Positions 2,943-63,675 are shown, counted from the stretch's first letter. The stretch: DNA of 64,000 nucleotides from a virus (IMGVR_UViG_2599185359_000001:1-64000), one strand, 5' to 3'. The notes: generated from the letters alone by a model not told the origin. Translations and numbers: made by a program.

Positions 2943-4601
2943 ATGCTGAAGCGGTTCATCAACTGGCTGGCGCGCAAGACGCCGCAATACAAGGCGCTCG
3001 AGGCCAATCGCGACGAGTGGCGCGACGACTACCTCGAAATGTGCGCACGTCGCAGCACCTGGGAGAAGAAGGCCAGGGGCTACCAGGACGTCCTGGTGGA
3101 GATCACCGGCTCGATCGAGAGCATCACCACGCCCAACGGCACGCTGCGCAAGATCCGCCGCATGGCGAACGAAGGCCTCGCCGGCTGATGGCCAGCGTGC
3201 CGCCATCGGTCGCGCAGGCGATCCAGGACCACGTCTTGGACTTCGAGCGAGAGACCAAGAACAACGGAAATCCGCCGTTCTATATGCGCGATCTGACGGC
3301 CGCGGTGCTGGCCAAGGTGGTAGCGGCGCCGGATAGCCCGGGCCGTATCCTCCGCATGTTAAAGCGCCAGGGCTTCGTCGACTATCGCGTCGAAGATCGC
3401 GCGCGTTCGCTGTATCGGTTTGTCTGATGACTGTGTCGAGCAACACACACGCAATTTTGCGGTCTCACTCATTCGCGAAGCTGATGCGATATGCTGATCG
3501 ACAAGCTCTCGTGTTTCTGACGCGCGACGAGACCGGGTCGCTGAAGATCATCGTGCAGCTGTGGTGCGTTCGCGAAGACAATCAGCTGCGCATTTCGCTC
3601 GCGGTCGACGGCGCCGACGATGAGGTGATCGCCCAGGGCTTTCACACCCTGGACGAAGCCCAGCTGAAGCGAACGCTGGACGAGCTCGGCGTCGACAAGA
3701 CGCTGGCGCAGCTCGAACAAGCAGCCCTGCCGCCGGCTGTTACGAACGCACAGCCGGCTGCTGATAGCGAGCCGAGGGTCTACTTCGACTGCGGCCAGTG
3801 CGGCGAAATCGGAAAGGTGGCCGACCTGAAGCAGCACGCCACCCGCCCCATGCCGGACGATATCGGGTTCTGTCCGAAGTGCCGCGTAGAGGTCGACGAC
3901 GTCCTGAACGAAACGGAGGTGCGCGAGCGGCTCAGGGAATACGACGAGGACCCGGACGCGTTTCTCGCGAAGCTCGGGGCTGGTTGATGACCGATCGCGG
4001 CATTCTGATGCTGAAGCCGATAGGCAGCGTGCCGCGCGACGGGCGCACTGTCGGGGTGTTCTGCCCCGGCGAGACGCCGGAGCACGTCTCCTGCCGCTGG
4101 TCGAGCGCGCCCAACGAGGATGGTACCGTCGCGTGGGAGGGGTTGATGTTCGTCGAGCCGATGCTCGCCGACGTTTGCCCTGACGGCCCGCAGAACGCGA
4201 CCCACTGGTACGATCTGCCGAGCATCGAGACCCAGTTGGTAAACCCGGCGTGGAAGTCGGAGCGAGAGATGCTTCGGGAGTCCTACGAGCAGGAGTTCGG
4301 CCGCCCGCGCGACAAGACCTGGCTCGGCGAGCTCGAGCCTCATGAACGCTTCACCCAAGAACAGCGGGCCGTGCTGATGGAGCGGCAGCTGCGGGCGGAT
4401 GCGGCCGACGTCTACTGGTTCGTTCAGTTGGAGCGCCAGACTGATGATATCCGCAATCCTCTGCGCTCCGGCTACCGCAAGATTTCGGCGCCCTGTCCGG
4501 TGCTGCAGGACTTCCGGCCGGAGCGGGGTGACGCCTACATCGTCGTGCCTTCCGGCAACATTCAGCGCGCCGAGTGGTCGGTGCAAGGCGAGCCAAGCTG
4601 A
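2943..4601 (+). CDS. Four translationally coupled hypothetical proteins (2943-3188; 3188-3427, wHTH-like; 3427-3987, two CxxC; 3987-4601)
   Basis: TGATG stop/start overlaps and phage-like codon use. Confidence 0.7.
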
Positions 4602-4999
4602 TGCGCGTCCTGGTCACCGGCGGCCGGTACTTCAACCTGGTCGACGAGGTTCATCGGGTGCTCAGCCGCGTCCACCAGAAGCACGGCATCGAAGAGCTCG
4701 GAGAGGGCTGGGCGACGGGGGCCGACGAGCTATGCCGCCTTTGGGCGCTTGCTCACGGGATACCCGTCGCCAGCTATGAGGCGAACTGGAAGACGTTCGG
4801 CGGCCGGGCAGGGATCATGCGCAATGCATCGATGCTGCGCGCGTTCAAGCCCGACCTTGCGATCGCATTTCCTGGCGGGGATGGCACCCGTGACATGCGG
4901 TACCGGCTGCGCGAAGCTCGCGTTCCCACGATGGTGGGACGCTTCACCGACACGAGCGAGACCGCTCTAGCCTGGGATCTGTGGCGCCCCGGGCATTGA
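4601..4999 (+). CDS. YspA/SLOG-family (DUF2493-like) protein
   Basis: MRVLVTGGR...GADE...AGIMRN...AFPGGDGT signature. Confidence 0.8.
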   Translation: MRVLVTGGRYFNLVDEVHRVLSRVHQKHGIEELGEGWATGADELCRLWALAHGIPVASYEANWKTFGGRAGIMRNASMLRAFKPDLAIAFPGGDGTRDMRYRLREARVPTMVGRFTDTSETALAWDLWRPGH

Positions 5000-5071
5000 T
5001 CCGCCACCGCAATTCGCTGTTGCGCTGACAGCGTGTGCGTTTTAACACACACCAACATTCACGAGGTTCAA

Positions 5072-5380
5072 ATGCGAAAGATCTTCAAGGCTTCCATGTT
5101 CGCCGCCGCGGTTCTCCTGGCCGCATCGCCGCTCGCCGGGTGCTCGGACGCGCGCATCGCAAAATTCCAGGCGCTCGGCACGCCGGCGCGGGTCACCTGC
5201 TACTCAGGCGGACGCGTCATCCTCGACGACTTCTCGACCGGCAAGGTGCTCAGCGAGAGCGAGAGTGACGGCATCTACTTCAACTCGCGCACGACCGGTC
5301 GCCTGATCGAAACCAGCGCCGACTGCGTCATCGACCACATGACCGCGGTGCCCGCCGGCTGGACACCGGTGCTACCGTGA
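5072..5380 (+). CDS. Putative lipoprotein
   Basis: Basic N-terminus, hydrophobic stretch and LAGC lipobox. Confidence 0.7.
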   Translation: MRKIFKASMFAAAVLLAASPLAGCSDARIAKFQALGTPARVTCYSGGRVILDDFSTGKVLSESESDGIYFNSRTTGRLIETSADCVIDHMTAVPAGWTPVLP

Positions 5381-7332: not shown

Positions 7333-7468
7333 TGGCCAGACCCCGCCGGCCCTATCTGTGTCGGCGGGGTCAGACAGCAACGAATCGGGCCGAGCCATGT
7401 GCCGATCGTCGCGTTTTCCCTGCGCCCGCACTCAACCGTTCGTTGACTTCTGCGTTGTACCACCGATA

Positions 7469-7494
7469 TTGACGTAACGGTCAATACCGTTACG
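7469..7494 (+). promoter_or_regulatory. Promoter/operator of the TA pair: TTGACG overlapping a perfect 9-bp inverted repeat CGTAACGGT-caat-ACCGTTACG
   Basis: Seen directly upstream of 7517. Confidence 0.6.
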
Positions 7495-7516
7495 GTCACA
7501 GCGCTAGGAGGGCGAA

Positions 7517-7663
7517 ATGGCTACCAAGTTCATTGCTGGCGACGCCACCACGACCCGCCGCAAGCGCGTCGCGCGCCCGACCGGCAAGCGCGTCGATATC
7601 GGCAAGGTGGTGAGCGACATGCACGATCGCTACCCGACCGTTATGGCGCACCTCGCTGAATGA
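7517..7663 (+). CDS. Small putative antitoxin (48 aa)
   Basis: SD AGGAGG; ATGA overlap with the Doc/Fic gene; C-terminal RYPTVMAHLAE resembles Doc-partner antitoxins. Confidence 0.65.
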   Translation: MATKFIAGDATTTRRKRVARPTGKRVDIGKVVSDMHDRYPTVMAHLAE

Positions 7664-8307
7664 GTGAGCCGCTCTGGCTCACTACGAGCGAGATAATCGA
7701 GATCAATGCACGCATCGTTGCGAGGACGGAAGAGCCCTCGTTTGTAAAGGATTGGCCGGCGCTTGAGAGCGCGGCTGACCGGCCTCGCAACGCATATGGC
7801 TACGGGCAAGATGACATTGCCTACCTGGCCGCGATGACGTGCGTTGCGATCGCCCAGAACCACCCGTTCATGCAGGGCAACAAGCGCACGGCGCTGATCG
7901 GAATGCAGGTGTTCCTGCAGAACAACGGCTACAGCTTCAACGCGCCCGACGTGCGCGAGGTCTCCCAGCTCATCTATGACGTGGTCGAGCATCGCCTCGA
8001 TGTTGATGGCCTTGCCGACCGCTTCGATCCGTGGATCGAGGAGCTAGGGGAGGGGTATAGCGGCATGGATCTCGGCGACCTGATCGCCGGAATGCCAGCG
8101 CAGTCGTTCTCGATCCACTTCACCGCTGGGAGCAAGTTCGACGGCGGTGGTGAGATCAACCTCACGCCCAAGGGAATGAAAACCATCACTGTATCTGTGC
8201 TGCGGCAGTCCGTTGACGCCGTTCAACATGAGGCAAGACGGCAAGCCGCCCAAGCGCGCTTCTGGTCCAAGGCAAAAAAGCGGCCGCCGGGCGACGAGCC
8301 AGCCTAA
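7660..8307 (+). CDS. Doc/Fic-family toxin
   Basis: HPFMQGNKRTA Fic/Doc motif; LESAADRP. Confidence 0.9.
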   Translation: MSEPLWLTTSEIIEINARIVARTEEPSFVKDWPALESAADRPRNAYGYGQDDIAYLAAMTCVAIAQNHPFMQGNKRTALIGMQVFLQNNGYSFNAPDVREVSQLIYDVVEHRLDVDGLADRFDPWIEELGEGYSGMDLGDLIAGMPAQSFSIHFTAGSKFDGGGEINLTPKGMKTITVSVLRQSVDAVQHEARRQAAQARFWSKAKKRPPGDEPA

Positions 8308-8811
8308 CGGTGCTTCTTCTTGGCCGACCGCAGCGCGTGGAAGTAGGCGGTCACCACCCGAGTGCCATCCACAGGGCCAGGATCCGGCCGCCGGGCGGGA
8401 ACCACGAGCACCTGATCCGATCGGCGGCAGGATGAGCACCTGAAGTGCCGGCTGGCGGCCGGCAGTTCCAGGGGCCAGCCGCGCTGGCGGAATTGCAGCC
8501 AGATGATCGCGTCGATCCGCTCGCCTCGAGCGCAGCGGAAGCACCACACCCTGATGTCCTGTCCCGCCTGGTCTATGGCCTCAATGGTCCGCATCGGTGG
8601 AACATAGACGGAACACTCACGGCCAGCCAGATCAGAAATCGATGTCGCGGCGCTCCATCTCCGAGGCGAGCGCCTCGACCGCCGGCGTTGTGGCATCGCC
8701 ACACGCGGCGGCCGTGCGCTGCCACTGGTCCACGAGTTCCTGGTCCGTTTTCCCGGCGAGCTCGCGGGTCCACTGGTCCAGCTGGTCCTTTGTCCAAGGG
8801 TCCGTCGTCAT
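8304..8811 (-). CDS. Zn-ribbon protein (8304-8594) and small hypothetical protein (8632-8811)
   Basis: CFRC...CSSC in the first; the second is DQ-rich. Confidence 0.55.
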
Positions 8812-9151
8812 CCTGGCAGCATGGTCCAGCTGGTCCAGCGAGGCAAGTGGGGCAGGGAGCTCGGCGGTGGATGGCACAAGCGGGCTCATCGGCGCCTGTG
8901 GATGGCAGAGTGATCGGACCACCGGCTGATAGGCGGCATCCGGGTCTAGCACTTGACGCGTTTTCTAGGACCTCCTCCTTGACAGCACTCCGATGGTTGC
9001 GAGTCGCGGTCGATGCGAGTCGCGCTTCTGTCAAGCAAACGCGACACTGTCTCTAGAGCGTTTTAAGCTACGCTAGAGCGCATAAACGAAAAAGAGCTAG
9101 TGCGACCGCTCTAGCTCTTTGATCGTGCTCTAGCGCGCGTCGTAGCGCATT

Positions 9152-9301
9152 CTAGCGTATGCTGCTAACCGCATTGCGAAGCTTGCGCGCAGCGGTGCGA
9201 ACCGCGCGGTTATCGCTAGAGCAATCGCGTGCGATGATAGCGCGAGCGTTAGCGCACTTGCGAAGTGCGGTGCGAACCTTGCGCTTGTCAGTGCGAGACA
9301 T
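9152..9301 (-). CDS. Small basic 49-aa protein (MSRTDKRKVRTALRKC...)
   Basis: SD GAGGT; ORF read by hand; contains no Pro, Trp or Gly. Confidence 0.55.
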   Translation of the reverse strand: MSRTDKRKVRTALRKCANARAIIARDCSSDNRAVRTAARKLRNAVSSIR

Positions 9302-9340
9302 AATCAAACCTCAGTAATAGCGTTGGTGCGGTGCGTAGCA

Positions 9341-9368
9341 GGTAGGTGCGCACCGAAGTGCGCACCTT
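9341..9368 (-). terminator. Hairpin AGGTGCGCAC-TTCG-GTGCGCACCT after the 294-aa gene
   Basis: 10-bp stem with UUCG loop; no U-tract, so it may be a stability or processing hairpin. Confidence 0.45.
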
Positions 9369-9375
9369 GTTAGCT

Positions 9376-10260
9376 TCACTTCATGAAGTCAGCGCGGAAC
9401 ATCGCGAAGAAAGCGTGCGAACCATCAAGCGCGATAGCGTCGCGGTTCTTCTGTACGCTCTTGATCGCACCGAGACCGAGAACGTCTAGAACGTTGCGCG
9501 CTTGCGACGACTGCGTCTCAGCACCGCTAGTCATTGCAGTGTGCGCTTGTTCGGTGAGGTAGTCGATCAGCTCTTGATCGCTGAACAGGTTCGTAAAACC
9601 TTGCGAGCAAAGAAAGCGACGATTCATGTCGTTAGTGATATCGGTGCAACCGCGATCGGTAGCAACCAGTGCGCAAGCGATGAAAGCGCGCGTTACCTTT
9701 TCGAGACGCGAACCGAAACCAGCGACGTACTTAGCGATTTCGGTAATCTTCTTGAGCGCTTTCGCGTTAAACATCGCGTTCGACGAAACCTTGCGTTCGA
9801 TGACGTCGCTTGCGTTGATACCGAGCGCGAGAAACAGACGCGCAATCGCTTGTTCATTTGCAAGCATGCGCTTGCGTTCGCGAGTGTAAGAATTGTCTTC
9901 GCTCAGCGAAAGACCGTTGCTCGCTTCGAAAGCGTCGCGACGCTCGAAGCTTTCGCGCACCGACTGCACCGCATCTTGCACGGTGACGGTATCGAAAGAC
10001 AGCGCAACGTCGCGCAGCGTGACGACTTCGCTTGCGTCGGTGTTTTCGAGCGATGCGAGCACGTCGGCAACGTCGTCAGCGTCGAGCGTGTCGTCGATGG
10101 TCGCGACCGAGGTGTCAGCGTCACCGATGATAGCGAGCGCACCAGCGCTGGCAGCGAGCGTCAGACCGTTCTTTTTCGCATAGCGCTTTGCGGCTGCTTC
10201 GCTCTTGAACGCGTGAACCGAAACCGAACCAGCGACGTCGACGAGATTGAAATCGATCAT
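9376..10260 (-). CDS. 294-aa Pro-free, Trp-free hypothetical protein; acidic N-half and probable C-terminal winged-helix
   Basis: SD AAAGGT; two AGCGGT hairpins upstream; SGAETQSSQARNVLDVLGL motif resembles the 39079-39945 protein. Confidence 0.8.
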   Translation of the reverse strand: MIDFNLVDVAGSVSVHAFKSEAAAKRYAKKNGLTLAASAGALAIIGDADTSVATIDDTLDADDVADVLASLENTDASEVVTLRDVALSFDTVTVQDAVQSVRESFERRDAFEASNGLSLSEDNSYTRERKRMLANEQAIARLFLALGINASDVIERKVSSNAMFNAKALKKITEIAKYVAGFGSRLEKVTRAFIACALVATDRGCTDITNDMNRRFLCSQGFTNLFSDQELIDYLTEQAHTAMTSGAETQSSQARNVLDVLGLGAIKSVQKNRDAIALDGSHAFFAMFRADFMK

Positions 10261-10593
10261 GATAAAGAACCTTTTCGTGAGAAGCTGCGAACCGCTTCGC
10301 AGCACCGAACCGCTTCGGTGAAATCAGTTCTAGTGTGTTCCGACATACACGCAAGCGCTTTTCCGCTTTTTCTGAAAAACCGCAGGAAAGCGCGCTTTTT
10401 GCACGTCGACTACAAGCGTGGTCGTACCAGTGTGCGAGGTTTTTGAGCGCGAATCACCGCGAATCGCTGTGTCGTTTCACACGATTCGCACCGCGCACCG
10501 ATCATGCGATTCGCAGTCGCGGTCACCGCGGCCCCGATTAAGACGAAACCGCGCGCTCGCACGTCACGCGCGCACACGCATAGGCGCCGCGCG

Positions 10594-12825
10594 CCATGGC
10601 ACCCCTACGCCCACGCGCACGCGAGTTCGCAAAATCGCCCATCCCCGAAATCGCCCAAGGACCCGAGCCCAATATGCCCACCGAGCCATACGGATTTTGA
10701 GCCATTCATCATCCGAGCCCATAGAGCTCCATAAGCCCATGGGAGCACCTGGGCACCATGAGCCCCGAAGATCCATGGCACCACCGCGCCCGGCGAGCAC
10801 CATTGGTCCATGGGCATCCATGGGCATGCCGAGATACGCGAGATCCATGGGGTGGTGCGCTCCCGAGGACGCATGGGGGATGAGACCCTCGGGAGCGCTT
10901 GCACCGGGCTCGCCGAAATGGGGAAGCGAGCCCAGGCAATCAGTGAATTTCGTGGATCATGCCGCGATGGCGATGATCTCGATAGCGGGCGCAAGCTGCT
11001 GAATTATTTCCATGAGCGCGCCCATATCGCTCCAGTGACAGCGGATGGATGCACCCCGAGGGCAAACGACCATCTCGAAGGGCATGGGCACGATGGGGGC
11101 GCCGCGCATGGTGGGATGCAGGACCATGATGCCCGAGAACCGCGAGGCGCCGGCTTCGATCCGCCAAGGTTCGCCCATCCGCGCACGCACCATGGACGCG
11201 ACGGCGTGATCGATCTTCACGATTTCCGTGTGATCCACCTCGGGGAGGATGGGCATGCCATAGGTGGCGAGCGTGACGTTCATGGGATCTGGCCTCTTCG
11301 ATTACTCGCGAGCACCGCTGCTCGCTGAAACCGATATGAGCGCATGCGTGCATGGATGCGGGCGGCTTTATGCACCGGCCGCGCGAGCCTCGATGAGCCC
11401 AAGCATCAGGAAAGCCTGGTGCCCATGGACGCCTGGAGACGCCGCACGCCTAGGGAGCCTGGGAACGCCTGAAGCCCATGGGCACGCCTGGCTGCACGAA
11501 ACCCGCGGCGCTAGGGGTCAGCAACGCCGCGGGCTCGACGGGTGTGTGGGATCAGGTGGCTGGGGTGTTGGCCACCACGAGGCTGACAAGGCCGGCGATC
11601 ATGCCGATGGAGGTGATGGTAACGCATGCCAGGTGCGTCTTGAGGGCATTAGCCACGAATGTCCTCCCATGCGGTAATGAAGCCGATGATGGCCGATGCG
11701 CCGAGAAAGATGGGCCAGGTCATTTGGCCATCACCTTGGTGCGCTCACAGGCGAACGATACCATGGCAATATCGCCGGCGGGCTTGATGTGGGCGGGGAC
11801 CCGGTAGAGCGGCTGATTGTTGGTGCGGCGAAGCATGCCCAGGCAGCTGCCCGCAGTCGGCGCGCGATCTATCACATATTCCGTGGGCTGCCCGCCCACC
11901 GTGATCGTCATGACGAGAGCCCAGAACATCAGCGGGTCTTGCCACCGAGGCGGCTCTTGCGTCGCGCCCAGCGGGCGCGGCGAGCGTCGCGATCGGAGGA
12001 ATTGATGCCCGGCGCGATACCGGTGGCGAGGGCGAATGCGATGCTTTCTTCGCGATAGTTGGACATGGTCACCTCTTCATTCTGCGAGCACCGCTGCTCG
12101 CTTGCTGAAGCTGATATGATCGTCCTGTCCGGTGGATGCGGGTGGGTATGCGAGCCTGGTCGACGGGATCTCTTGTCCTCGCCGAGCATCATGGGCGCGG
12201 TGGGCATAGCGGATCCATGGATGCCCATGGGAACGGTGTGCTCTTATTGGCTCAGATACGATCGAAAAGCTCGCCGGGCTCCATGGGCGCGGGGAGGCAT
12301 TGTCCTCATGGGCATATGGGATCGCTGCCGTACATGGAATTTGGGAGCGTGAGGGGCGGGTGCCATGGATGCCCATGGATCTCAGGGCACAAGCAAATGC
12401 CGCGAGAACCCCATGCTCTCGCGGCATTCACCCCTCGGCCAGCGGGAAAAGGAACCGGCTGGCGTCGTTGCGGTCTGGTTTTTATGATCGCCCTTGTGAC
12501 CGCGGGCAAGGGCTATTGGGTCAGAATGAGCGACGGCCGGGTTAGATTGAGTGGTCGCGCCGGAGCTTGTTTAGCTCGTTTTCCTGATCCGTGGTGAGGT
12601 CGTCCGTGCACAGCAGATCATCCGCCTCACTCCTCGCGTCGGAGACTATCTCCTCGATGCGTTCGATCCGCCGCTTGAACTCTGCATCGTCCATTTGCGC
12701 GTGCTCCTTGATGCGCGTTGTCTCGTTGATCTCGGTATAGCGATCGTTCCGGCGGACTAAAGCGGCTTGTTGACGGCATCAAGCTTGGCGAGGGGCGGGA
12801 GGCTATGGGCTCGGGTGACCCATGG
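10594..12825. repeat. CCATGG-dense region (16 copies)
   Basis: Counted directly; three pairs lie exactly 10 bp apart. Confidence 0.85.
10957..12694 (-). CDS. Small hypothetical proteins (10957-11283, 11720-11929, 11929-12066, 12542-12694)
   Basis: SD sequences; two are preceded by AGCGGT hairpins. Confidence 0.55.
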
Positions 12826-13130
12826 AGCGCGTGGATTTAGGTGGGCGTGGGGCTGGATGGGCGCTCCGAGATTTCGGTGCCCGGCCGTGTAGGGCAGAAA
12901 TGACAAAGGGCGTTCGGTTGAAAGTGAGCGCGCGAATTTCCTCGTCCAGCGTCAACCACGAGCTCCATATGCTCCAAGCACTCCATATGCCCGGTGAGAT
13001 CCATGCTTCCCTTACCCCATGAGTACCCATCGCCCCTATGATCCATACGCTCCGATGTGTCCCTAGTGCGTGACCCTTCCTTATGGGTGGACGCCTATAT
13101 GCCTGGTGCCTTTGAACGCCTGGGGAATGC

Positions 13131-15041
13131 CTAGGAAGCCTGTGTATCGGGTTGGCCTAGGTCGTAACCATCGAGATTGGTGGCGATCTCCTCGTGGATC
13201 GACACCTCGCCTTTGTCGATGTGGACGATCAGCGTTTGGTGTTTGCCCGTGGGTGCTTTGATCCGGCCTTTGCTCATGGTGATCTCGACGTCCTTGGCGA
13301 CATAGTCGTTGCATCCGATCGAGATGACGGCTTCTGCGATGCGAATGACGTCCTGGGTGGTGTCGATCGCCTCGGGTGTGGTGACGGTCACGCCGTCTCC
13401 GAGTTTGATGTGGGTCACGGATCAGTCCTCTCCGAGATATGCTGCTGTCGTCGCGAACCTGATGTGCGTGATGACGCGCTCTCTGGTGAGGGCTTCGGTG
13501 CGGCCGAGCTGCCACGGCTCCTCATCGTCCGACTTGGTGCAGAAGAAGGCATGGTTCGCCTTGGCATTACGAGCGTCGATTGCTGCGATGAGCGGCTCGA
13601 CCAGATCGTCGTCCCAGGTTTCCGCGATCCACTCCAACAGGTCAGCCTGACCTTCGAGGGCGATCGCCTTGGCGTTCGGTGTTGCCAGCCAGCTCGCGAA
13701 GTTCGGGCGGGGCTCTGGCTTGGGCGCCTGGTCGCTCACCGCAAAGCTGGAGAGGGAGCGTGGGTCGATCATGGTTATGCCTTTCTCTCGGGGATGTAGC
13801 GCCAGCCCAGGCGTGGGTGCTTCTCGGGGATCAGACGCATGCCGACGAGCTGCTGCGGGTCATCGCAGCCGCGACGCGCCGCCTCATTGTGGATCAGGCG
13901 CAACAGCGTTCCGCGGATCTGAACCTTCTTGCCATTGGCATCCGCGATCAGCTCGCCGAAGCTTGCGTCATGCACCGCCGTGATGGTGACGGGCACCGGC
14001 TCGCTTCCATAACCTGCGGACCGCAGGAGCGGCAGCCTGTCGTGGCGTTCGAGCTCCGCGGCTCGCATAGCCTTGATGCGTTCTAGGGCGCTGCGCATGG
14101 TCACTCTCCCTTCGCGATCCATCTGCGGGCCAGGGTGGTAGCGCCGATGATCAGCCATATCAGCCACAAGGAAGCGCTGGCGACCGCGAGTGCTTTCCAC
14201 GGGATGGTCGCCCGATCCTGCGAAAGCCCGGCCTCGTACTCCTTGATGCAGTCTTCGTAGGTGGGCAAGTCGGCGGTCCACGTCGACTCGAGGCGCGGGT
14301 TGCAGCCGATCCGTTCAAGATCGTTGGCTACTCCCCTCGCGACGTGTTCGCCCGCCATCCACGATCCCGCGAACGCTATGGTGAAATAGGCAGCGGATAG
14401 CGTGGCCGCGAGGCGAGCCCGCTTGGTCTTCAACATTCCCGTCGTCCCCCTGTGTTCTCAAATCGCCCGCGCGATCCTTACGATGGTCTCTTCCCAGGTG
14501 AAGCTGCCATCGCCCTCTTCATGCTGATTTTTGCCGTCTGCCTTGCCCGCGAAGCAGAACTGCTCGACGTGGGCTCGACGCGGAACCTCTACATAGAGGC
14601 TGATCGGGTCACCGGCATAGGCGGCGGCGAGATATTCGACCATGTGGCTCGCGACAAGCCTGGCGTCGTCGGGGTTGCCGTCCAGGCTGAACTCCGCGGC
14701 GAACGCTGGGGAGGCATATGCTTCCATGCCGGGGATCGCCTCATGCTGGCGCCACACCTTGATGATGATCTTGCCCATGGTCAGAACTCGTACTTCTCGG
14801 CCCACCACGCCGTGATCCGCTTCCAGACCTCCGCCGGCTCGATCTCGCTGGCGTTCTCGATCACCAGGTCGGGCAGCGGGCTCATCATCGGATGGATGTC
14901 GAAGATGATCTGGTTACCGCGCCGCTTGGCGGGGACTGGGCACTGGTCGTCGGGCAGGGTGTTGGCTTCGGCCGAGCCGGGCGCGAACTCGCCGAGAAAC
15001 GCACCGGTCATTTGGTTGAAGTAGAGGTAGGTCTTGGCCAT
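13131..15041 (-). CDS. Operon of hypothetical proteins (13131-13418, 13422-13772, 13775-14098, 14101-14436 two-TM, 14458-14778, 14781-15041)
   Basis: Tightly packed same-strand ORFs behind a hairpin/promoter cassette. Confidence 0.7.
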
Positions 15042-15125
15042 CGTCGCTTCCTTTTCATCGAGCACCGCTGCTCGGTGATTTCGGTATGCGCGCTGCCGGT
15101 GATGGATGCGGGTGGGCAGTGATCG

Positions 15126-43624: not shown

Positions 43625-43645
43625 GCAGGACGCAAATGATACGGT

Positions 43646-48406: not shown

Positions 48407-48545
48407 TGCTTCCTCTTGAGCGCGAGGTGAGGGCAGCCGCCGGAATACAGGCGGCAGTTAAGCGGCGTCTTCGTCCCGCCGGCTGCGTGGTGCGTCTTGG
48501 CGGCCTCGACGATGCGTGCGGGTGCGCCGCAAGGGGCGCAGCTCA

Positions 48546-49091
48546 TCAGAACTGGCCCCATAGGGGGTTGGATTGATCGATGCTGTTCGTCACCTGCTCT
48601 TTCTTATCCTGCTGGGCGACCACAAAGCCCTCTGAGAGGATCTTGTGCATCGCCGCGTTCTTCTTGATCGCATCGACCACGGCTGCCTGGATGTCGGCGA
48701 CCTTGGCGCCGTCCAGGTAACTCTCGACCCGCTCAGCCAGGTCGCCGAAGCAGTTGATGATGTCATCCCAGGCCAGCTCGATCCATTCGACCGGACCCTT
48801 GTCGCAGACCCATTCGCCGTCGACCGGCATGACGAAGATGAGCCCGTCGCGTTTGCCGAGCCGGATCTCCTTCGCGTTGACGCGCGTACCGGTCGGCACG
48901 CTATGCCGGCGGTACCCCTTCTCCTTCACAGCGCACGCGCAGAGGATCGGGAGCTCGACAGGGTAGGGGCCGTGGACACTCGCCCGGGCGAAGGCCGCGG
49001 CCAGCTTGACCAAATCCTTCACCGTCGAGGTATTTGCGGCCTTGGAGATCATGTCGGCGGTCACCTGGACCGCCGGTGCTTTCTTGCTCAT
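48546..49091 (-). CDS. Hypothetical protein ending NPLWGQF
   Basis: SD GAGG; lies within the core replication block. Confidence 0.75.
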   Translation of the reverse strand: MSKKAPAVQVTADMISKAANTSTVKDLVKLAAAFARASVHGPYPVELPILCACAVKEKGYRRHSVPTGTRVNAKEIRLGKRDGLIFVMPVDGEWVCDKGPVEWIELAWDDIINCFGDLAERVESYLDGAKVADIQAAVVDAIKKNAAMHKILSEGFVVAQQDKKEQVTNSIDQSNPLWGQF

Positions 49092-49101
49092 TGTGCCTCG
49101 T

Positions 49102-51078: not shown

Positions 51079-51253
51079 CGCGTTTCCTTCTCGATAAGGG
51101 AGGCTACCCGCTTCGTGATGCCTGGTTTGCCCTTCAGGCTTTGGAGGAGCGCCCTGCGGTTCCTGCGTGGGCTGGGATTGATGACCGGGCAGAACTCCGG
51201 CTCCCAGGTGTGATGGTGGCTGCCGCCGCAGCACGGGCAGGGCGGAACCTCCA

Positions 51254-52309: not shown

Positions 52310-52321
52310 AGGATCCGATCC

Positions 52322-54410
52322 TTAATTCGCGAGAGTGTCGAGTGCGGCTTCGGCGCCTTCCACAGCGGCCAGCGCATCGGTGGCGTCGTTACGCGCGATG
52401 TAGGAGGCGTGCTTCAGCTGCTCCGCTGCCGCGCGGAGGCAGTCGGTGACCGAGGTATTGCCGCGCATGGCAAAGCCATCTGCCTCTCCGTTCAGGGCCG
52501 CAGCGCGGGCGTCCATTTCCTGCGCGAAATCGAACATGGCCTCGACGCTTTCCTCGGTTTCGTCGATCAAGCCCTCGAGCTCGGCGGCGGCTGCCTCATT
52601 CTGCTCGGCGGCCCAGGCGGCTTCCTTTGCCACAGCCTCTTCACGTTCCTGCTGAGCCTGCCGTTCCTTGATCGCAACGGCGAGAGCGGCGGCCATCGGA
52701 TGGCCGCTAGTCCGAACGAACTCGTTCGCCTGGTCGGCCGGCGTCGCGGCGGTCTTCGCTTCATCGTGGATGGCGCGGCACGCGCGTTCGGCGCGGGCGA
52801 AGCTCGAATGGTAGTTCATGGGCAATCCTTACTGCTGGGCGGCCGACTGGCGTTCGCGACGGGCGATCTCCCGCGCGTCGCTATGCGGGTCGAGTGTGTG
52901 TCGGTTGGCACGCGACATGCGACCGAAGGCACCGGCGGGGACGCGTGCGAGCGACTTTTGCAGGCGCGTGGGTGCCGCGAACTGCTCGTTGAGCTTCTTG
53001 CCGGCGAGCTTCGCCTTGTGCGCCTCGAGGCGCTCGGCTTTGGTGGCGTTGTGCGGGAGGCGAGCCATCAGCGGCAGGCCTCCACGGTCTTGGCGATCGT
53101 GAGCGCGATCAGCCCCCAGATCCCCAGATTGAAGAGCGCCGCGACCGTAATCCACTGGCGCACACTCAGAACGTCGATATTCATTGCTGACCTTTCGTCG
53201 GTGTGTGTTGTTTAACACTCGACCTTGTTAGCGGTGCGTTTGCGCTTGCGCAAGCTGGGACCAAGAAATTTATTCGTGTAGCGCGTATACGGAAGCACCC
53301 GGTGCGCGCGGCCGCGATAGTCGGCCTTCGTGCGGTAAAGCTCGGCGTCATCGAAGTCATCGATCGGCGTCAGAAAGATCCGGCGCTGCTCCTCGACGAC
53401 GACCATCACAACGGAGACGTTGTGCTGTGGCGCGCGGCGGAGCAGCTCTCGATCAACGCCGATGCCTGCTTCGCCTCTCTCGATCGCTTCGGCGATTGAC
53501 TTCGACCGGCCGCGCCAGATGTCACGCCCCTTCTGCTCCACGATCAGGAAGCGCGTCCCGCTGGGCGTCTCCATGATCTTGCCCTGCACCCTGGGCGCCA
53601 CTTTCAGCAGCCCGATCCGCTTCATGCCCTGCGAGATAGGTCTCAGCATCTTCGACAGAGAGGCGTTGAAGGTAAATGGCGGTAATGCGGGTTTTTTCGT
53701 TGATGATGCGGGGGCCATAGTTCTGTCTCTGCCATTGCAGGAGCGCGCGCGCCGCTTCGTAGCTGGGCTTCTCCTGCATGAGGTGGTTCATGGATGCGTG
53801 CACGGCGAGGATCTCGGCGATCGGGCCGGCGAAGAGAGCCTTGACGCGGCTGTAGCCGAACACCGTTTGCTTTTTGGCGTCGTAGAGGGCGATGACCTGG
53901 TCAATGCGCAGGCGCTGGGTCCACGCGACGCCCACGCGCACGGTGTTGGCGAACCGATTGAGGCCGGTCTCGTCCTGGAAGGGGATGGCGGGCACGAATA
54001 TCGCGCAAGCCGTGCGGCGCTGCAGTTGGCACACGTCGTTGACCGCGCAGTGGTCGCACGGGAGCTTGCCGGCGCCGGACGTATAGGTATCGTCGGGGCG
54101 ACGCTTCAGCTGTCGTGTGTCCGTGTCGATCAAGTATCATCTCCATAAAAGAGCGCTCGCAAAGTGGTTAGACCTTGCGAGCGCTCGCTTCTACTTGGCT
54201 TGTGGTGGCTTACGCTGCTGCGTTCCAGCCGTTCACTACGTTGCGCTCCTCCGGGGCCAGCGACGCTCCCCACCCGGAGAAAATGAACTGCGGGTCGTCG
54301 CCGGTGATTTCACGAAATGCCTTCGCGACCGCGGCACGCATAGGAGCGTCCGAGCCCGGCGGAAGCTTCGACGCATCAACTTCCCCGATCTTGCAGCCCC
54401 AGACCTTCAT
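52322..54410 (-). CDS. Hypothetical proteins (52322-52825, 52829-53068, 53068-53184, 53212-~53650, 53522-54133 possibly ASCH/PUA-like, 54210-54410)
   Basis: Same-strand packed ORFs. Confidence 0.6.
54147..54186 (-). terminator. Terminator-like hairpin
   Basis: 12-bp stem GAGCGCTCGCAA/TTGCGAGCGCTC then TTTT on the minus strand. Confidence 0.6.
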
Positions 54411-57572: not shown

Positions 57573-57662
57573 AATTCCTAATGCTCCTGTGTTCACTTCG
57601 AATAGAGTGTGTGTCGTTCATAACTCGCGCGAGACACACCTGTCGCGCGGCTTCGTGGTGGG

Positions 57663-58214: not shown

Positions 58215-58265
58215 GCTGTTCTTTCGCTGGGTGTGATGTGTGTTGTAACGCACGCGCTCAGAAGG

Positions 58266-61200
58266 TCAACAAGAATTGTCGACCAGAGCGCGCACTTCGG
58301 AGAAAACTTTCGTCAGCGCTTCCCGCTTGCTCGCATCGTGATAGATCTGCGTTGGCTTGAACCCAACGATAACCGTGGCATCGAGCTCGGCCGAGTAGGT
58401 CTTGCGGCCGACATGATCGGCAAGGCCCTTCAGGTCGGGGTAGAATGTCTTGATTGCCTGCGGCCCGAGGAGCACGATGACTGGCGGCTTCATCGCCGCG
58501 ATTTCGCGGTAGAGGTAGGGCAGGGAGTCCGCCACTTCCTTGGCCGGCAGATCCCGCTCGCCCTTCTTCAGCGGCCGGCGAAGCACCCAGGTCCACACGG
58601 CGTCGTCAAGCCGCATACCGGCATCGTGGAGGCTCGGCGCCACATAGTTCACATAGGAGAACTGGTGCTTGAGCTCCTCGTAGTCGTTGAACGGCGCGTC
58701 CAGGATGACCATGAATTTCGGCGCGCGGCCGAGCTCGCATGGCACCGCAGCCTCGCCCAGGTTCGCCATCATATCTTCGACCACCTGCACCACCGTGTCG
58801 GCGACGAGATCGTCGACCGGGATGTCGCGGGTCGCGACGACGCCCTGGTCGCTAATTGCCGGCATCAGCTCGATCTGGTCACGCTGACGGGACGGGTCAG
58901 TCGACTTGGCTTGACCGGGCACGATGCGCGCGAACGCGCCGACGCGATCGAGATGGTCGATGGCCTTGCTGTTCACCGCGCGGCTCGGCACGCGAGCCTT
59001 GAAGTCCTCCATGCTCACAAACCGGCCAGGGCCGAAGGTCTCGGTTGTGGTCACCTTGTTCTTGCGGCGCCCGGTGCTGCTCTCGACGACGACGGGGTTC
59101 GGGTCCGAGCGCGCGGCCATGATTGCACTGGCGCCCTTCTCGGACACGTTCTTCACCGCGGACAGGGGCGCGATGATGATGCAGTCGTTCAGCGGCTCGA
59201 ACTGGCCCGTGGAAATGTTGACGTCGGGCGGGATGACCCGGATTTCGTCCTTGGCCGCCTGCTTCACGATGCTGGCGAGCTTGTCACTGTCCGCGATGCC
59301 CATGCTGGCGGTATAGAACTCGACCAGGTAGTGAGCCTTCAGGTAGGCGGCCTGATACGCGATCAGCGTGTATTCCACGGCGTGGCTGCGATTGAACGCG
59401 TAGCCGGCGAAACCTTCGATGTCCGTGAAAAGGCGATCGGCGTCCGTGTCCGGCATGCCCGAGGTGTCGACGGCGCCCTGCACGAACTTGTCGCGCTGCT
59501 GGGCCATCATCACCGGGTCCTTTTTGCCCATCGCCTTGCGGAGCACGTCGGCTTCGCCAGGCGTGAAGCCGCAGAGGACACGGGCGATCTGCATCACCTG
59601 CTCCTGGTAGGCGATCACACCATAGGTGTCCTCGAGGATGGGCTTGAGGCTCGGCCACGGGTAGCTCACGGCCTCGGTCCCGGCGCGGCGCCGGATGTAT
59701 GCCTCGGTGATGCCCGCATCGAGCGGGCCGGGACGGTTCAGGGCGTTAAGCGCGACGAGATCCTCGAAGCTGAGCGAAGCAGTTTTCGCCATCTCCTTCA
59801 GCAGGCGCCGCACGGACCCGCCCTCGAACTGGAACACGCCGGCGGTCTTCGCGCCCGAGAAAATCGCGAGCGTTGCCTCGTCGTCCAGCGGCAGCTTGTT
59901 GATGTCGACGCGGACGTTCCGGCGCTGGAAGATGAGCTTGAGCGCCTGGTCGAACATGTCGAGCGTGGACAGGCCGAGCACGTCGAGCTTGATGAGCCCC
60001 TGCTCTTCGCTGACGCGCTTGTCCCAGTTGATCACGCGCGCGTCGCCGCGCTTCTCTACCACCGCGCGCTTGGTGAGCGGCTCGCCCGCGACAACGACGC
60101 CGCCGGCGTGCGTGCCATAGGCTCGCATCTTGCCCTCGAGCTTCAGCGCCCGATCCCAGATGTGCGGGAACTGCTCCGCAAACACCTGGATCTCATGCGT
60201 GGTTTCGAACGCGTCCTTCAGCCCGGCCGAAACGCCGTGGGTGTCGCCGATGAACTTCGTGGCGCCCAGCTGGTCCTGCGGGAGGCCATAGATGCGCGCG
60301 ACGTCACGGATCGCACCGCGGGCGCCCATGGTGTTGTAGTTCACGATGCCCGCGACGTTCTCCGCACCATACCGGTCTGCCAGGTAGGCGATCACCTCTT
60401 CGCGGCGCGTGGACATGAAGTCGAGGTCGGCGTCGGGGAGATCGAGACGATCGGGGTTGATGAAGCGCTCGAACAGCAGCTTGAACCGGATCGGGTCCAC
60501 GTCGGTGATGCCGACGAGATAGGCGACCAGGCTGCCGCCCACGGAGCCGCGGCCCGGGCCGACATAAATGCCCTTGCTCTTCGACCAGCGAACGAGATCG
60601 GACACCAGCAGGAAGTACGGCGCAAAGCCGAGGCGCCGAAGCGTGTCGAGCTCGAACTGGAGGCGCGGCAGGTATTCCGCCTTGAGCTCCGCCGGGCTCG
60701 GCTGGTGCGCGAAGATGGGCGCGGTGAAGCGATCGCTCCAGCCTTCCTTGCATAGGCGCTTGAGCTCTTCGTCAGGATCGTTGGCGAGTGACGGCAGCGA
60801 TGGGTCGAGCTTCGCCCATTTGTACTCGGCCAGCTCCACCAGACGCTCGGTGTTCATCAGCCCGCGCTTGAACTCGGCGCCCCAGTTGCGGCCATAGCGG
60901 TCGGCGACCGCGTTGCTGGCGCGCACTGTGGCGGCGGCCAGCTCCTTTACCGTGTGCGGCTGGTACCGCGGGACCGGCTGGAGGTAGTCGCTGTAGGGGC
61001 GACGATCGGCGATGCCCGCGTTGCAGCTATAAGCGTCGTCGTCGTGATCGAGCCAGAACGCCGGCTGCACCACCAGCGGCTCCCACTCGGGCATGGCGCT
61101 GAAACAGCCGTTCAACTTCGCCCAGTCGATCACGCGGTGGTTCTGTCGCGAGAAGTAGGGCGTGTCGCTCGGCACAAGCTCGTAGAAGCGCGCTACGAAG

Positions 61201-61685
61201 CGAACGCGCTGCGCGAGGTCAGACATCGCTTTGAGCATGTCGTCGCGCTGTGCGACGCTCTCAAGGTCACCGGTGCTTATGACGAGACAGTCATCGTCTA
61301 GCGTCGACGCGAGATCGTCCCAGGTGACCCGCGGGACGAAGTAGAAGCGGTCAGCGTCGAACCCGCGGGTAAGCAGGCGGTAGAGCGACCGCATGCCCTC
61401 GTCGTTGGTGGGGTAGAGCTTGAGGAAGCATGCTGTCTCGCGCTCGCTTTTGTCGCGGCCAGCGTCCTCCTCCATGATCACGCGGACGCGCACGCCGGCG
61501 AGGAGCCGCTTGTCGAGCTTGCCCAGCTTCTTCGTCGCCTCCACCACGGAGGAGATCGTCATAGTGTCGCAGATGCCAACGACGTCAGCGCCCGCCTTCT
61601 CGGCCACGGCCGGCAGATCGTCGATGCCCAGGATGGACTCGCCAAGGGAGAAGTCGGTGCGCACACCGAGCAGGGGGTGGATCAT
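58266..61685 (-). CDS. dnaE: DNA polymerase III alpha with C-terminal UDG-like domain
   Basis: PHP N-terminus, GPGRGS, PDADLD, KLDVLGL, FNRSH; last ~150 aa show a family-4 UDG-like pattern (EIAAMKPPVIVLLG). Confidence 0.93.
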   Translation of the reverse strand: MIHPLLGVRTDFSLGESILGIDDLPAVAEKAGADVVGICDTMTISSVVEATKKLGKLDKRLLAGVRVRVIMEEDAGRDKSERETACFLKLYPTNDEGMRSLYRLLTRGFDADRFYFVPRVTWDDLASTLDDDCLVISTGDLESVAQRDDMLKAMSDLAQRVRFVARFYELVPSDTPYFSRQNHRVIDWAKLNGCFSAMPEWEPLVVQPAFWLDHDDDAYSCNAGIADRRPYSDYLQPVPRYQPHTVKELAAATVRASNAVADRYGRNWGAEFKRGLMNTERLVELAEYKWAKLDPSLPSLANDPDEELKRLCKEGWSDRFTAPIFAHQPSPAELKAEYLPRLQFELDTLRRLGFAPYFLLVSDLVRWSKSKGIYVGPGRGSVGGSLVAYLVGITDVDPIRFKLLFERFINPDRLDLPDADLDFMSTRREEVIAYLADRYGAENVAGIVNYNTMGARGAIRDVARIYGLPQDQLGATKFIGDTHGVSAGLKDAFETTHEIQVFAEQFPHIWDRALKLEGKMRAYGTHAGGVVVAGEPLTKRAVVEKRGDARVINWDKRVSEEQGLIKLDVLGLSTLDMFDQALKLIFQRRNVRVDINKLPLDDEATLAIFSGAKTAGVFQFEGGSVRRLLKEMAKTASLSFEDLVALNALNRPGPLDAGITEAYIRRRAGTEAVSYPWPSLKPILEDTYGVIAYQEQVMQIARVLCGFTPGEADVLRKAMGKKDPVMMAQQRDKFVQGAVDTSGMPDTDADRLFTDIEGFAGYAFNRSHAVEYTLIAYQAAYLKAHYLVEFYTASMGIADSDKLASIVKQAAKDEIRVIPPDVNISTGQFEPLNDCIIIAPLSAVKNVSEKGASAIMAARSDPNPVVVESSTGRRKNKVTTTETFGPGRFVSMEDFKARVPSRAVNSKAIDHLDRVGAFARIVPGQAKSTDPSRQRDQIELMPAISDQGVVATRDIPVDDLVADTVVQVVEDMMANLGEAAVPCELGRAPKFMVILDAPFNDYEELKHQFSYVNYVAPSLHDAGMRLDDAVWTWVLRRPLKKGERDLPAKEVADSLPYLYREIAAMKPPVIVLLGPQAIKTFYPDLKGLADHVGRKTYSAELDATVIVGFKPTQIYHDASKREALTKVFSEVRALVDNSC

Positions 61686-62248
61686 TTCAGCTCCAAGGTT
61701 GCACCGTTGCGCTGCACGCGCTTGCACACGGTGAGAATAGAAACGGTCGCGTAGGTGCTGCGCTGCGCGTTCTGAGCGCTGAGCGAGAAGCTTTGCGCGA
61801 TGCACGCGGTCAATTCGCGCATCGTGTGCGGTCGCTCTCGCAGCGCGCTGATGACGGCCGCCATGATGCGGTTCACGCCGGCCACGACTTCGATATGCGC
61901 GTGCCGCGGGTCGATGCGATTACGAACCATTTTGTCGATTGTGGAATGCGCTCGCAGATCCAGGTGCGTCTTGAGCGCCATCACGCCTTCTTCGTCCGGC
62001 ATCGGGGCGGGCGGGGTTGGCTCGGGCTTCTTGCGAGCAGCTGCCTTCTCGGCGCGCGTCTTCCAAGCCTCACTCATTTTCTTACCCGTGCCGTCGCTGA
62101 AGCGATCAAGCAGGCGCATCATCTGCGGCCGACGCTTGTCTACCATAGTGGCACAGTCGGCGTGCGCCGCGCACGCGGTGCAGTTCGGCGAGCCCGCGTC
62201 GAACGCGAGCGAGGAGCCGAAGCAACCAGGGGCGGGCATGTGTGTCAC
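61682..62248 (-). CDS. Hypothetical protein with N-terminal Cys cluster and wHTH-like C-terminus
   Basis: PGCFGS...CTAC...C. Confidence 0.7.
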   Translation of the reverse strand: MTHMPAPGCFGSSLAFDAGSPNCTACAAHADCATMVDKRRPQMMRLLDRFSDGTGKKMSEAWKTRAEKAAARKKPEPTPPAPMPDEEGVMALKTHLDLRAHSTIDKMVRNRIDPRHAHIEVVAGVNRIMAAVISALRERPHTMRELTACIAQSFSLSAQNAQRSTYATVSILTVCKRVQRNGATLELK

Positions 62249-62335
62249 CTTGCACGGATCCAGATCAAAAAGGTGGGCGACATTCCTGTCGCCCGAGGTG
62301 AGGAGCCGAAGGTGAGCGCCTTCGACGGGAGTTGC

Positions 62336-63577
62336 TTATCCGAAGATGCGTTGCGCGGTCTGACGCACGGCCTCGGCCTGCGTGGAGTCCAGGCGATTTG
62401 CGTAGGCGAGCTCGATGCCCTTGCGGAACGCGCCGCCCTTGATCATGCCGATCATGGTCGCGCGGATCGATTCACGCGGTGAGATCGGGAGCGACAGTTC
62501 GCCATTGCCGTACATCTGGCGGATGCGGCTGGCGAAATCGACCATCTTCTCCGCGACGTCCTGGCTGACGCCGACGCGCTGCTTCAGGATTTCGATTTCC
62601 GTCTTCGTCTCGGGATAGTGGACCTGGATGGTCACGCCAAAGCGTGAGTAGGCGGCGGCGTTGCCGATCTTGGTGCCGCTGTAGAGACCGGTATCGTCGC
62701 CCGAGCCGTTGGTGTTGCCCGTCGCGATGAAGCGGAAATTCGGGTGCGGCTTGACCAGACGCTGATGGGGAGGGGCCTCCTTGATGTAGAGCGGCTTGCC
62801 CTCGAGGATCGGCTGATAGACCGCGATCACGGCGGGGTGCGCGAAGTCGTATTCGTCGGCGACATATACCCAGCCGCGCATCATGGCCTCGGCGAGGGGG
62901 CCGTAATCGAACTCGGTGCCCCCGTTGCGGACGACCATCTGCCCGATGATGTGCGCCTCTTCGGTGGTGTCGGTGTGCTGGACACGGACCCAGGGACGAT
63001 GGAGGCGGGCGCAAATCTGCTCGACCAGCGACGTCTTGCCGGTGCCGTGCATCCCCCAGGCGAGCAGCGGGAAGTTGAGCTGCACGGCCATCACGGCATC
63101 CTTGAGCTCTTCGGCGCGGAAGACGTAGCTGTCGTCGATCGCCGGCACCGCCTCGGCATCGGAGACGTCCAGGTTTTGCATCACGTCGATCTGGATGGGG
63201 TCACCCTGCGACGCGCCGCGCTTGGGCGGCGAGCGAAGCTCGTCGGTCAGCGGCATGTCGAACACCTCGAACATGGGCTTCTTGACGGTCGTGCCCGGCT
63301 GGGTGAACGGGAGAACCTTGGCCGCCATCTTCTGGCTGGCCTCGTCCTGGGCGCGACGCTCAGCGGCCCGCCGGGCGGCGGCCTCTTCGAACGTTTTGCT
63401 TTTGGTCGGCGCTTCGGGGTAGTCCGCCTTGTACTTCTGCTCCGTGACGCCAGGATGGGCGTTCGCGAGATGCTTGGGGATGAAGTGCTCGGCCGATCCG
63501 CAGATCTGGCAGAGGACCTTATCGCCGGCTGCGTCGTAATAGCCTTCAGGCTGCTTGAGTGCGGTCGCGGTGCTCAT
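62336..63577 (-). CDS. MoxR/CobS/CbbQ-like AAA+ ATPase with N-terminal C2H2 finger
   Basis: CQIC..H..H, GMHGTGKT, VADEYD, ATGN, RF, SPR. Confidence 0.9.
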   Translation of the reverse strand: MSTATALKQPEGYYDAAGDKVLCQICGSAEHFIPKHLANAHPGVTEQKYKADYPEAPTKSKTFEEAAARRAAERRAQDEASQKMAAKVLPFTQPGTTVKKPMFEVFDMPLTDELRSPPKRGASQGDPIQIDVMQNLDVSDAEAVPAIDDSYVFRAEELKDAVMAVQLNFPLLAWGMHGTGKTSLVEQICARLHRPWVRVQHTDTTEEAHIIGQMVVRNGGTEFDYGPLAEAMMRGWVYVADEYDFAHPAVIAVYQPILEGKPLYIKEAPPHQRLVKPHPNFRFIATGNTNGSGDDTGLYSGTKIGNAAAYSRFGVTIQVHYPETKTEIEILKQRVGVSQDVAEKMVDFASRIRQMYGNGELSLPISPRESIRATMIGMIKGGAFRKGIELAYANRLDSTQAEAVRQTAQRIFG

Positions 63578-63675
63578 TTCTCACTCCTCAGTGCGCTTTT
63601 GCGCTTTCGATGTGTGTCAGTTACCACACGCACAAACCAATTCAAGCGGGAATGTGTGTGGCAGTTCGCATTGGA

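Follow-up and report, generated by a model that had tools for sequence, protein, structure and literature searches.

What keeps short patches of a prophage free of a three-base word that is abundant in the DNA around them? This question is raised by a 64,000-nt stretch of viral DNA (IMGVR_UViG_2599185359_000001:1-64000), called the window here. The word is GGV/BCC, i.e., GG with A, C, or G as the next base, or equivalently CC with C, G, or T as the preceding base; GGT/ACC is exempt. The window corresponds to G000:C16:25307-89306, in a 4.77-Mb genome of 67% GC, and represents the left 64 kb of a ~111-kb prophage of 63% GC (C16, about 24000-136000). Syntenic relatives were found in the IMG/VR contigs G062 (103.5 kb, complete, 48% GC) and G061 (41.7 kb, 61% GC) and at the loci L014, L015, L016, and L019. 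A search for relatives in the GenBank phage collection gave no match, and none of 60 related genomes matched. Gene calls are crude, being based on GC content at third codon positions, and several start codons are uncertain.

The original prediction, made from the sequence of the window, listed 11 patches with GG/CC avoidance. It described them as unexplained by intergenic AT-richness alone, promoter-associated, and partly coding, and it read them as sites kept free of a modifiable motif, that is, as the footprint of an epigenetic layer at contacts with host RNA polymerase, gyrase, or a phage regulator. The description stands, and the purge of the word is real and far beyond chance. The modifiable motif, the epigenetic layer, and gyrase found no support: G062 is purged, yet no counterpart of the only modification-type genes seen in the window was detected in it, and nothing was found that points to gyrase.

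Word-Free Runs and the Exemption Rule

All 11 predicted patches exist as maximal runs free of GG[ACG] and [CGT]CC, and nine of them contain zero words over the predicted interval. The intervals 19422-19510 and 38998-39078 hold one word each because they overshoot the maximal runs, located at 19420-19493 and 38994-39057. Further patches, missed by the original prediction, were found at 7426-7507, 28232-28297, 34954-35019, 48179-48307, 50392-50531, 58230-58299, 61172-61318, and 61693-61856. In total, the window contains 12 of the 18 runs of at least 100 nt in the whole genome and 17 of the 46 runs of at least 80 nt. The rest of the genome has, per 64 kb, 0.39 runs of at least 80 nt, 0.08 of at least 100 nt, and 0.04 of at least 130 nt.

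For comparison with shuffled sequences, a purged island of 1.5 kb (8990-10530) was taken out before runs were counted. The window without this island contains 26, 12, 8, and 6 runs of at least 60, 80, 100, and 130 nt, respectively. The corresponding values are 6.4, 0.48, 0.03, and 0 for 100 global shuffles preserving dinucleotides, and 1.8, 0.14, 0.02, and 0 for 200 shuffles keeping the composition within 100-nt blocks. Among host windows of equal length and GC content (within 0.03), word-free ones amount to 0 of 59,000 to 1.3 million for patches of at least 98 nt and to 0.1-1% for patches of 58-89 nt. At a GC content of at least 0.48, a run of at least 60 nt was found in only 2 of 396 host intergenic gaps vs. 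8 of 37 gaps in the window (Fisher test, 5e-8; the host gaps are crude). The original prediction had proposed comparison of run lengths with shuffles and host intergenic DNA; in both comparisons the runs of the window are far in excess, and host gaps of equal GC content do not match them. AT-richness is thus insufficient, since GC-matched host windows, shuffles, and host intergenic gaps all fail to give such runs.

The exemption of GGT/ACC is real and not post hoc. With this exemption, the prophage contains 14 runs of at least 100 nt, the longest being 670 nt. Exemption of any other GGN or NGG, CGG apart (GGA, GGC, GGG, AGG, and TGG were tried), leaves 0-4 such runs. Exemption of CGG gives nine runs (maximum 309 nt), fewer than the 28 found in the host, and it gives these only because the permitted GG is mostly part of CGGT. 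Purging of other dinucleotide pairs gave no comparable runs for any pair. In 4.7 kb of patch DNA, GGT/ACC has a normal density, 3.2-4.3 per 100 nt vs. 3.19 phage-wide; the density of GGV/BCC is 0 vs. 11.9 per 100 nt phage-wide outside the patches. The non-coding DNA of the prophage as a class has no word depletion, and the effect is therefore patch-specific.

Putative Promoter-Leader Modules

A promoter-like module (CTTG at -35, TGnTA, ACACAC) recurs at most of the patches. It is located between an upstream stop codon and the next Shine-Dalgarno (SD) site, in agreement with the predicted promoter regions. The predicted ACACACA/TGTGTGT box is present in 9 of the 11 patches, and the SD sites GAGGT (~5063) and AAAGGT (~53190) were found as claimed. 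Eleven sites of the window were aligned on the ACACAC box. The common order is a CTTG-type -35 element, a spacer of ~17 nt, TGnTA, ACACAC, a leader of 20-35 nt, the SD site, and the start codon; in 6-8 modules, CTTGCG, CTTGAA, or CTTGCT lies 17-18 nt ahead of TGnTA. The aligned modules contain zero GGV/BCC from about -30 to +9 and nearly zero up to +29 or the SD site. Word peaks are found at ~-35 and at the SD site, and five of the 11 modules have a BCC one base ahead of CTTG. This architecture suggests that the ACACAC modules are promoters.

On the plus strand, one module is located at 5004-5089 (86-nt run, SD site GAGGT). All the others listed here are on the minus strand. The module at 19420-19493 (74-nt run) reads GCC-aCTTGTG, followed by TGCTAGACAACACACAC and the SD site GGA. 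Runs of 66 nt were found at 28232-28297 and at 34954-35019, the latter having a leader hairpin, GCGAGCAGCGGTGCTCGC. The module at 38994-39057 (64-nt run) heads an operon with Nmad5 and a PAPS-reductase-like gene (phosphoadenosine phosphosulfate, PAPS), and the one at 43502-43589 (88-nt run) is upstream of thyX. A 100-nt run at 53158-53257 has the SD site AAAGGT. The module at 58230-58299 (70-nt run) is downstream of dnaE, and that at 63586-63648 (63-nt run) is upstream of a MoxR/CobS-like AAA+ gene. In the modules at 5004-5089 and 53158-53257, the SD sites are of the GGT type, and the run therefore carries on into the open reading frame (ORF). Additionally, a 64-nt run with GTGTGTC...GACACAC was found at 57586-57649 (minus strand) upstream of the gene for a gp32-like single-stranded DNA-binding protein (SSB).

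Modules of the relatives are purged too, with runs of 55, 93, and 59 nt in G061, 61 nt in L014, and 66 nt in L015; the median run from a random position in these genomes is 13-16 nt. In the window, 11 of the 21 motif hits sit in unbroken runs of at least 64 nt. In the right arm of the prophage, only two motif sites are found in such runs, and the zone from -30 to -1 contains words there. A scan of 34000-53900 with an E. coli-type consensus, which needs T at the last -10 position, found no module except the site at 47788-47760.

The box also belongs to a pattern largely confined to the phage. GTGTG-N6-14-CACA has 52 matches in the genome; contig C16 accounts for 40, including 34 inside the prophage. 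The looser pattern GTG-N6-13-ACACAC has ~45 matches in the prophage, located at gene junctions. Thus, many copies of one short, phage-confined site are present at junctions, as would be expected for stoperator-like sites.

RNA folding of the modules is no better than that of shuffled sequences (z between -2.4 and +1.5), apart from the junction between the ribonucleotide reductase (RNR) gene and the next gene (45618-45697, minus strand, 80 nt word-free), where a near-perfect 13-bp inverted repeat or hairpin, GTGCGCGTGTGTG...CACACGCGCAC, lies at 45640-45680 (z = -4.0). No Rfam hits and no tRNAs were found. Non-coding RNA was rejected as a cause on these grounds, the folds being unremarkable save at this junction.

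Patches Outside the Promoter-Like Modules

Two word-free elements without an ACACAC box are inverted relatives of each other, with matches of 23 and 29 nt, and each of them is located just 3' of a gene. The first (21145-21275, plus strand, 131 nt) contains GAGCGATTTTAAGCGC and the palindrome TAGAGCGCTCTA; the second (35043-35172, minus strand, 130 nt) follows an operon. The motifs GAGCG-TTTTAAGCG and CTAGAGCGC are common to both elements, to the DNA downstream of the island gene, and to G062 8384-8557.

Coding DNA contains five patches of 129-164 nt, which bears out the prediction that some runs extend into genes. On the minus strand, these were found in a RuvC-like gene (48179-48307, 129 nt, codons 33-76), in an SbcC-like gene (50392-50531, 140 nt), in the DnaE gene (61172-61318, 147 nt), and in the 3' part of a 188-aa ORF (61693-61856, 164 nt). 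This ORF immediately precedes dnaE, whose true start codon is probably the ATG at 61685. The fifth is a double patch on the plus strand (3372-3610) that spans a gene junction. It consists of the runs 3372-3535 (164 nt) and 3536-3610 (75 nt) with one word between them, and has an ACACAC module at 3433-3450. In the coding patches, that in the SbcC-like gene included, the word is avoided both by synonymous codons and at codon junctions; for example, Ala is encoded by GCG, GCA, or GCT, never by GCC, and CAA is used before G. The coding patches are not position-conserved in G062. What comes closest is the small ORF before dnaE and its G062 homologue (27% identity), each of which has a patch, although at different codons.

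Purged Transcription Unit and Word-Rich Arrays

In addition to the short patches, a whole transcription unit is purged. This island (8990-10530, minus strand) includes a promoter-like motif at 10333-10350, a gene for a predicted winged-helix protein of 295/309 aa (9376-10305; 9376-10263 for the 295-aa product), a small ORF, and word-free terminator hairpins. The purge follows the same rule in the short patches and in this regulator unit. The island protein contains no Pro and no Trp, and all 15 of its Gly codons are GGT, vs. 45 of 45 GGC in the RNR gene. Its 118 homologues average 0.89% Pro and 0.09% Trp. The homologous genes contain 1-2 words in three viral contigs, 11 in L019, 16 in L014, and 86, a normal load, in L015. 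In this last genome (Novosphingobium sp.), the homologue at 10001-10654 holds its 86 GGV/BCC in 654 nt, with array words inside; the same locus is still purged at 14660-15076. The L015 homologue represents a natural case of loss of purge.

The AlphaFold2 model of the island protein has a predicted local distance difference test score of 89.6. C-terminal residues 187-295 align to winged-helix domains (AF1382, Sir3, Orc/Cdc6, and MarR) with Z of 6-7.6, the range of common folds. The protein has no match in Pfam, PHROGs, or a PDB profile search, Foldseek gave nothing below E = 1e-3, and the protein atlas was uninformative.

The unit ends sharply at an element kept in all six relatives. This edge element (8880-8960, minus strand) is word-rich and consists of GAAGTCCTAGAAAA-N15-GACCCGGATGCCGCCTAT..GCCGG...CCATCCACAGG. 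Its counterparts are located at L014 11190-11260, L015 15095-15150, L016 1325-1400, L017 10720-10800, and L018 11095-11170. The element marks the sharp border of the purged unit and is nearly invariant in six phages of 48-64% GC, even at the synonymous sites of an ORF beginning at this point. The element holds DnaA-box-like ATCCACA copies, three of them in G062, and may be an origin or a primary binding site.

Nowhere in the prophage are words denser than in the flanks of the island, which have 15-16 words per 100 nt. Of the 15 segments of 120 nt with the highest word density, five are found at 8.3-12.9 kb. The zone at 10531-13050 has 15.2 GGV/BCC per 100 nt vs. 11.9 for the window and contains 14 of the window's 24 BCCATGGV palindromes. 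BCCATGGV and YCCATR words form arrays there, mostly between small minus-strand genes, with preferred spacings of ~10 and ~35 nt. Array words of the BCCATGGV type are equally dense over the 2-4 kb upstream of the winged-helix gene in each of the six relatives. In the arrays, the 5' flank of the BCCATGGV palindrome is almost never A, and its 3' flank almost never T. Counted over seven genomes, the array copies of CCATGG are preceded by C in 120 cases, T in 68, G in 53, and A in 11, vs. 20% A in the host (p = 5e-13). The flank rule of the arrays is the same A/T exemption as that of the purge, found independently where the word is enriched.

Alternative Explanations for the Purge

An artefact of base composition, of shared ancestry of promoter cassettes, or of codon usage is hardly credible. 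The GC content of the patches is 0.47-0.63, below the 0.63 of the window, and the modules have a common word-free core of ~25 nt; however, the runs were not reproduced by GC-matched host windows, by shuffles of local composition, or by host intergenic gaps. Shared ancestry does not account for the purge, given that spacers and leaders vary from one module to the next and that the patches have little similarity beyond the core. Repeats were rejected, since the patches are not mutual copies, except for 21145-21275 and 35043-35172. Codon bias and high expression were rejected as well, because the purge extends to codon junctions and non-coding DNA and comparable runs are missing from the host. 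A need intrinsic to this class of promoters is quite unlikely. It would require DNA free of GG/CC from -30 to +30 for bending, melting, promoter escape, or leader accessibility, with the short patches unrelated to the island. Such a need would fit a purge zone that is registered on the module, kept in the relatives, and extended over leaders that end at the SD site, as GG/CC avoidance in leaders would limit spurious SD-like and SD-sequestering sequences. Nevertheless, the same GGT/ACC exemption governs the island, the elements 3' of genes, and patches deep in coding DNA without any module. Moreover, host intergenic DNA of equal GC content has no such effect, right-arm sites with the same core motif are unpurged, and the RNA folds are unremarkable.

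The two remaining explanations involve enzymes acting on the word. A phage or common host system that modifies G or C in GGV/BCC, with sites for RNA polymerase or regulators, and one gene that would have to be expressed from modified DNA, kept free of modifiable sites, is unlikely. The degenerate three-base word and the strand symmetry would suit a DNA enzyme with frequent sites; for instance, M.CviPII and Nt.CviPII of chlorella viruses act on CCD. Candidate genes are also present. An accessory operon (35188-39029, minus strand) encodes Nmad5 (37852-38472), the PAPS-reductase-like protein (35439-36260), and three unknown proteins. The order is the patch 38994-39057, Nmad5 and further genes, the PAPS-reductase-like gene, and the element 35043-35172, so that the two candidates lie between two patches; a DUF4942-methyltransferase is encoded at 21973-23490. 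Nmad5 has been described as involved in making modified DNA bases (PMC11846954). A match to it was found on the contig of L019 (G064), and the PAPS-reductase-like protein is of the PP-loop type with weak similarity to DndC. Nevertheless, the complete 103.5-kb G062 keeps the purged unit and patches and has no family match to Nmad5 or PAPS reductase, and tblastn found in it no homologue of Nmad5, the PAPS-reductase-like gene, or the DUF4942-methyltransferase. None of the three is thus kept in every purged genome, although some other, unrecognized enzyme may be, and the modification operon was rejected as a general cause. Modification would also leave unexplained the word-rich palindrome arrays beside the purged gene. 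Escape from a host weapon directed at the word, such as a restriction or nicking enzyme, a CRISPR system with a protospacer adjacent motif (PAM) of the CC/GG type, or a cytosine deaminase with context specificity that targets transcribed or single-stranded DNA, is very unlikely. Motif avoidance is the classical signature of such pressure, and phage T5, in its first-step-transfer region, offers an earlier example of local avoidance. The purge is weaker in some integrated or metagenomic copies (16 words in L014, 11 in L019, 86 in L015), which would fit selection during infection alone. However, ~12,000 words are left elsewhere in the prophage, and the local purge therefore gives no protection from cutting or CRISPR. 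The word lacks the genome-wide under-representation that restriction-site or PAM avoidance would demand: its density outside the patches is that given above, and the observed/expected ratio of GG/CC is 0.75 in the window, close to the 0.78 of the host (0.77-0.80 in host contigs). Furthermore, the hosts differ, the GC content of the relatives being 48-64%. Neither changes of GGC to GGT nor enrichment of GCG/CGC can arise by deamination; deaminase hypermutation was rejected because of the intact ORFs, the GGT-only Gly, and the GCG/CGC excess. To our knowledge, there is no enzyme or PAM with GGV/BCC specificity, and none that exempts ACC/GGT.

A Proposed Word-Reading DNA-Binding Factor

Tentatively, and with less than even confidence, we favor the explanation that the patches are footprints of negative selection against the three-base word on duplex DNA, exerted through a word-reading DNA-binding factor encoded by the phage family. 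The strand-symmetric 3-bp rule operates in non-transcribed promoter DNA, leaders, coding DNA, and terminator stems, and it therefore points to something that reads duplex DNA. Such a factor is favored over modification because G062 is purged in the absence of the modification genes, and because BCCATGGV arrays with the same A/T exemption stand beside the purged regulator gene; the reader might still be a modifying enzyme.

According to this proposal, the factor reading the word would most likely be the winged-helix protein from the purged unit. With the arrays as nucleation sites, this protein would sit weakly or cooperatively on word-containing DNA and prefer BCCATGGV or GGV-rich DNA over ACCATGGT or word-free DNA. 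Its occupancy within ~35 bp on either side of a start site would hinder binding of RNA polymerase and promoter escape. The early and middle promoter-leader modules, a few segments of 130-165 nt, and the reader's own gene would hence be kept as word-free "blind spots," allowing these regions to work at any level of the reader. Gene bodies would tolerate the word, as an elongating polymerase would displace such a protein.

Several points weigh against the word-reading factor. The identity of the putative reader is a guess, and selection against isolated 3-bp half-words would be unusual for a protein whose site is an 8-bp palindrome. The L015 homologue has a normal word load, and the gene of the reader therefore need not be invisible. 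The motif sites of the right arm are unpurged. The deep intragenic patches in the SbcC, DnaE, and RuvC genes have no evident regulatory role, and their position is not kept in G062. The 11 "good" modules were picked partly after the runs had been seen, which weakens the positional profile and leaves the run statistics intact. Finally, the promoter status of the modules is deduced from their architecture, and the E. coli-type scan misses them.

More doubtful is the wider reading, in which a family of ~100-kb alphaproteobacterial phages runs a DNA-reading layer on a 3-bp word. A phage protein would occupy or mark word DNA globally, possibly including the host chromosome, and word-free blind spots of 60-165 bp would insulate early promoters, leaders, terminators, and the reader gene. 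If true, this would represent a new principle of phage genome organization, with control regions built to be invisible to a reader of a 3-bp word, and a prokaryotic-virus counterpart of promoter islands defined by a missing mark. It would also provide a purely sequence-based route to promoters and to units that must stay active, and would explain the near-absence of proline and tryptophan in one conserved regulator family. For experiments, the analysis offers a concrete and cheap handle in the form of a 295-aa protein, a palindrome whose flank rule is predicted, and modules open to word insertion.

Genomic Context of the Patches

Genes found in the window include an integrase (1-1266), an ATP-dependent ligase, the DUF4942-methyltransferase, RNR, the SbcC-like gene, the gp32-like SSB, a DnaE-UDG fusion (uracil-DNA glycosylase, UDG), and the MoxR/CobS-like ATPase. 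Further Pfam matches are ThyX, RuvC, NUDIX, RNase T, RecA, DnaB, DnaG, PhoH, Nmad5, and the PAPS-reductase-like protein. For one gene, the closest named homologues were found in Sphingomonas and Novosphingobium. The DnaE-type polymerase (58266-61805, minus strand) has a C-terminal domain of the UDG superfamily at residues 1029-1159, and this enzyme is kept in G062 with 59-60% identity. The left arm near the integrase encodes a YAcAr (SLOG) protein (4574-4996, plus strand), kept in L014, L015, and G061, and a Fic/DOC-family protein (7660-8304, plus strand).

The gene order of G062 is the same circular permutation as that of the prophage. The ends of the G062 contig lie between homologues of the window genes at ~40.9 kb and ~43.6 kb, close to the patch 43502-43589. 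Beyond the window, a very AT-rich, (TATA)n-like stretch of 130 nt is located between structural genes (G000:C16:126199-126328, ~100893-101022 on the window scale). It is bordered by GCGTGCGTG repeats and may be a packaging or origin-like site.

Comparison with Known Systems

Avoidance of short motifs is known in phages, including PAM depletion, with AAG-poor regions and primed adaptation (PMC6282206). As in restriction-site and PAM avoidance, a short word was removed here from both strands of phage DNA by selection. In contrast to these cases, the word of the prophage has 3 bp, is degenerate, and is not depleted genome-wide; it is erased in ~20 discrete stretches at control regions and in one transcription unit. 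The first-step-transfer region of T5 lacks sites for several restriction enzymes. It resembles the patches in that avoidance is local and tied to expression that must succeed early. In T5, however, a single terminal block avoids 6-bp sites, whereas the prophage has many patches of 60-165 nt, which are spread over a span exceeding 60 kb and do not lie at any known end of the genome.

Self-immunity by a missing three-letter word, paid for in the choice of codons or amino acids, is found in the GCU-free mqsR/mqsA messages and in ACA-less mRNAs that resist MazF. Those cases operate at the RNA level and on one strand, whereas the prophage is purged symmetrically on both strands, non-transcribed promoter DNA included. 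A single short site repeated dozens of times at gene junctions is also typical of operator networks such as the stoperators of the temperate mycobacteriophage L5 and the KorB operators of RK2. There, the sites themselves are the feature, whereas the prophage adds the absence of another word around the sites. Finally, vertebrate CpG islands offer a parallel in concept only, as in both cases the dinucleotide content of promoter DNA would be set by a genome-wide system that marks or reads DNA. The CpG word is retained by escape from methylation-driven decay, whereas the word of the prophage is removed by selection, and the two have no evolutionary relationship.

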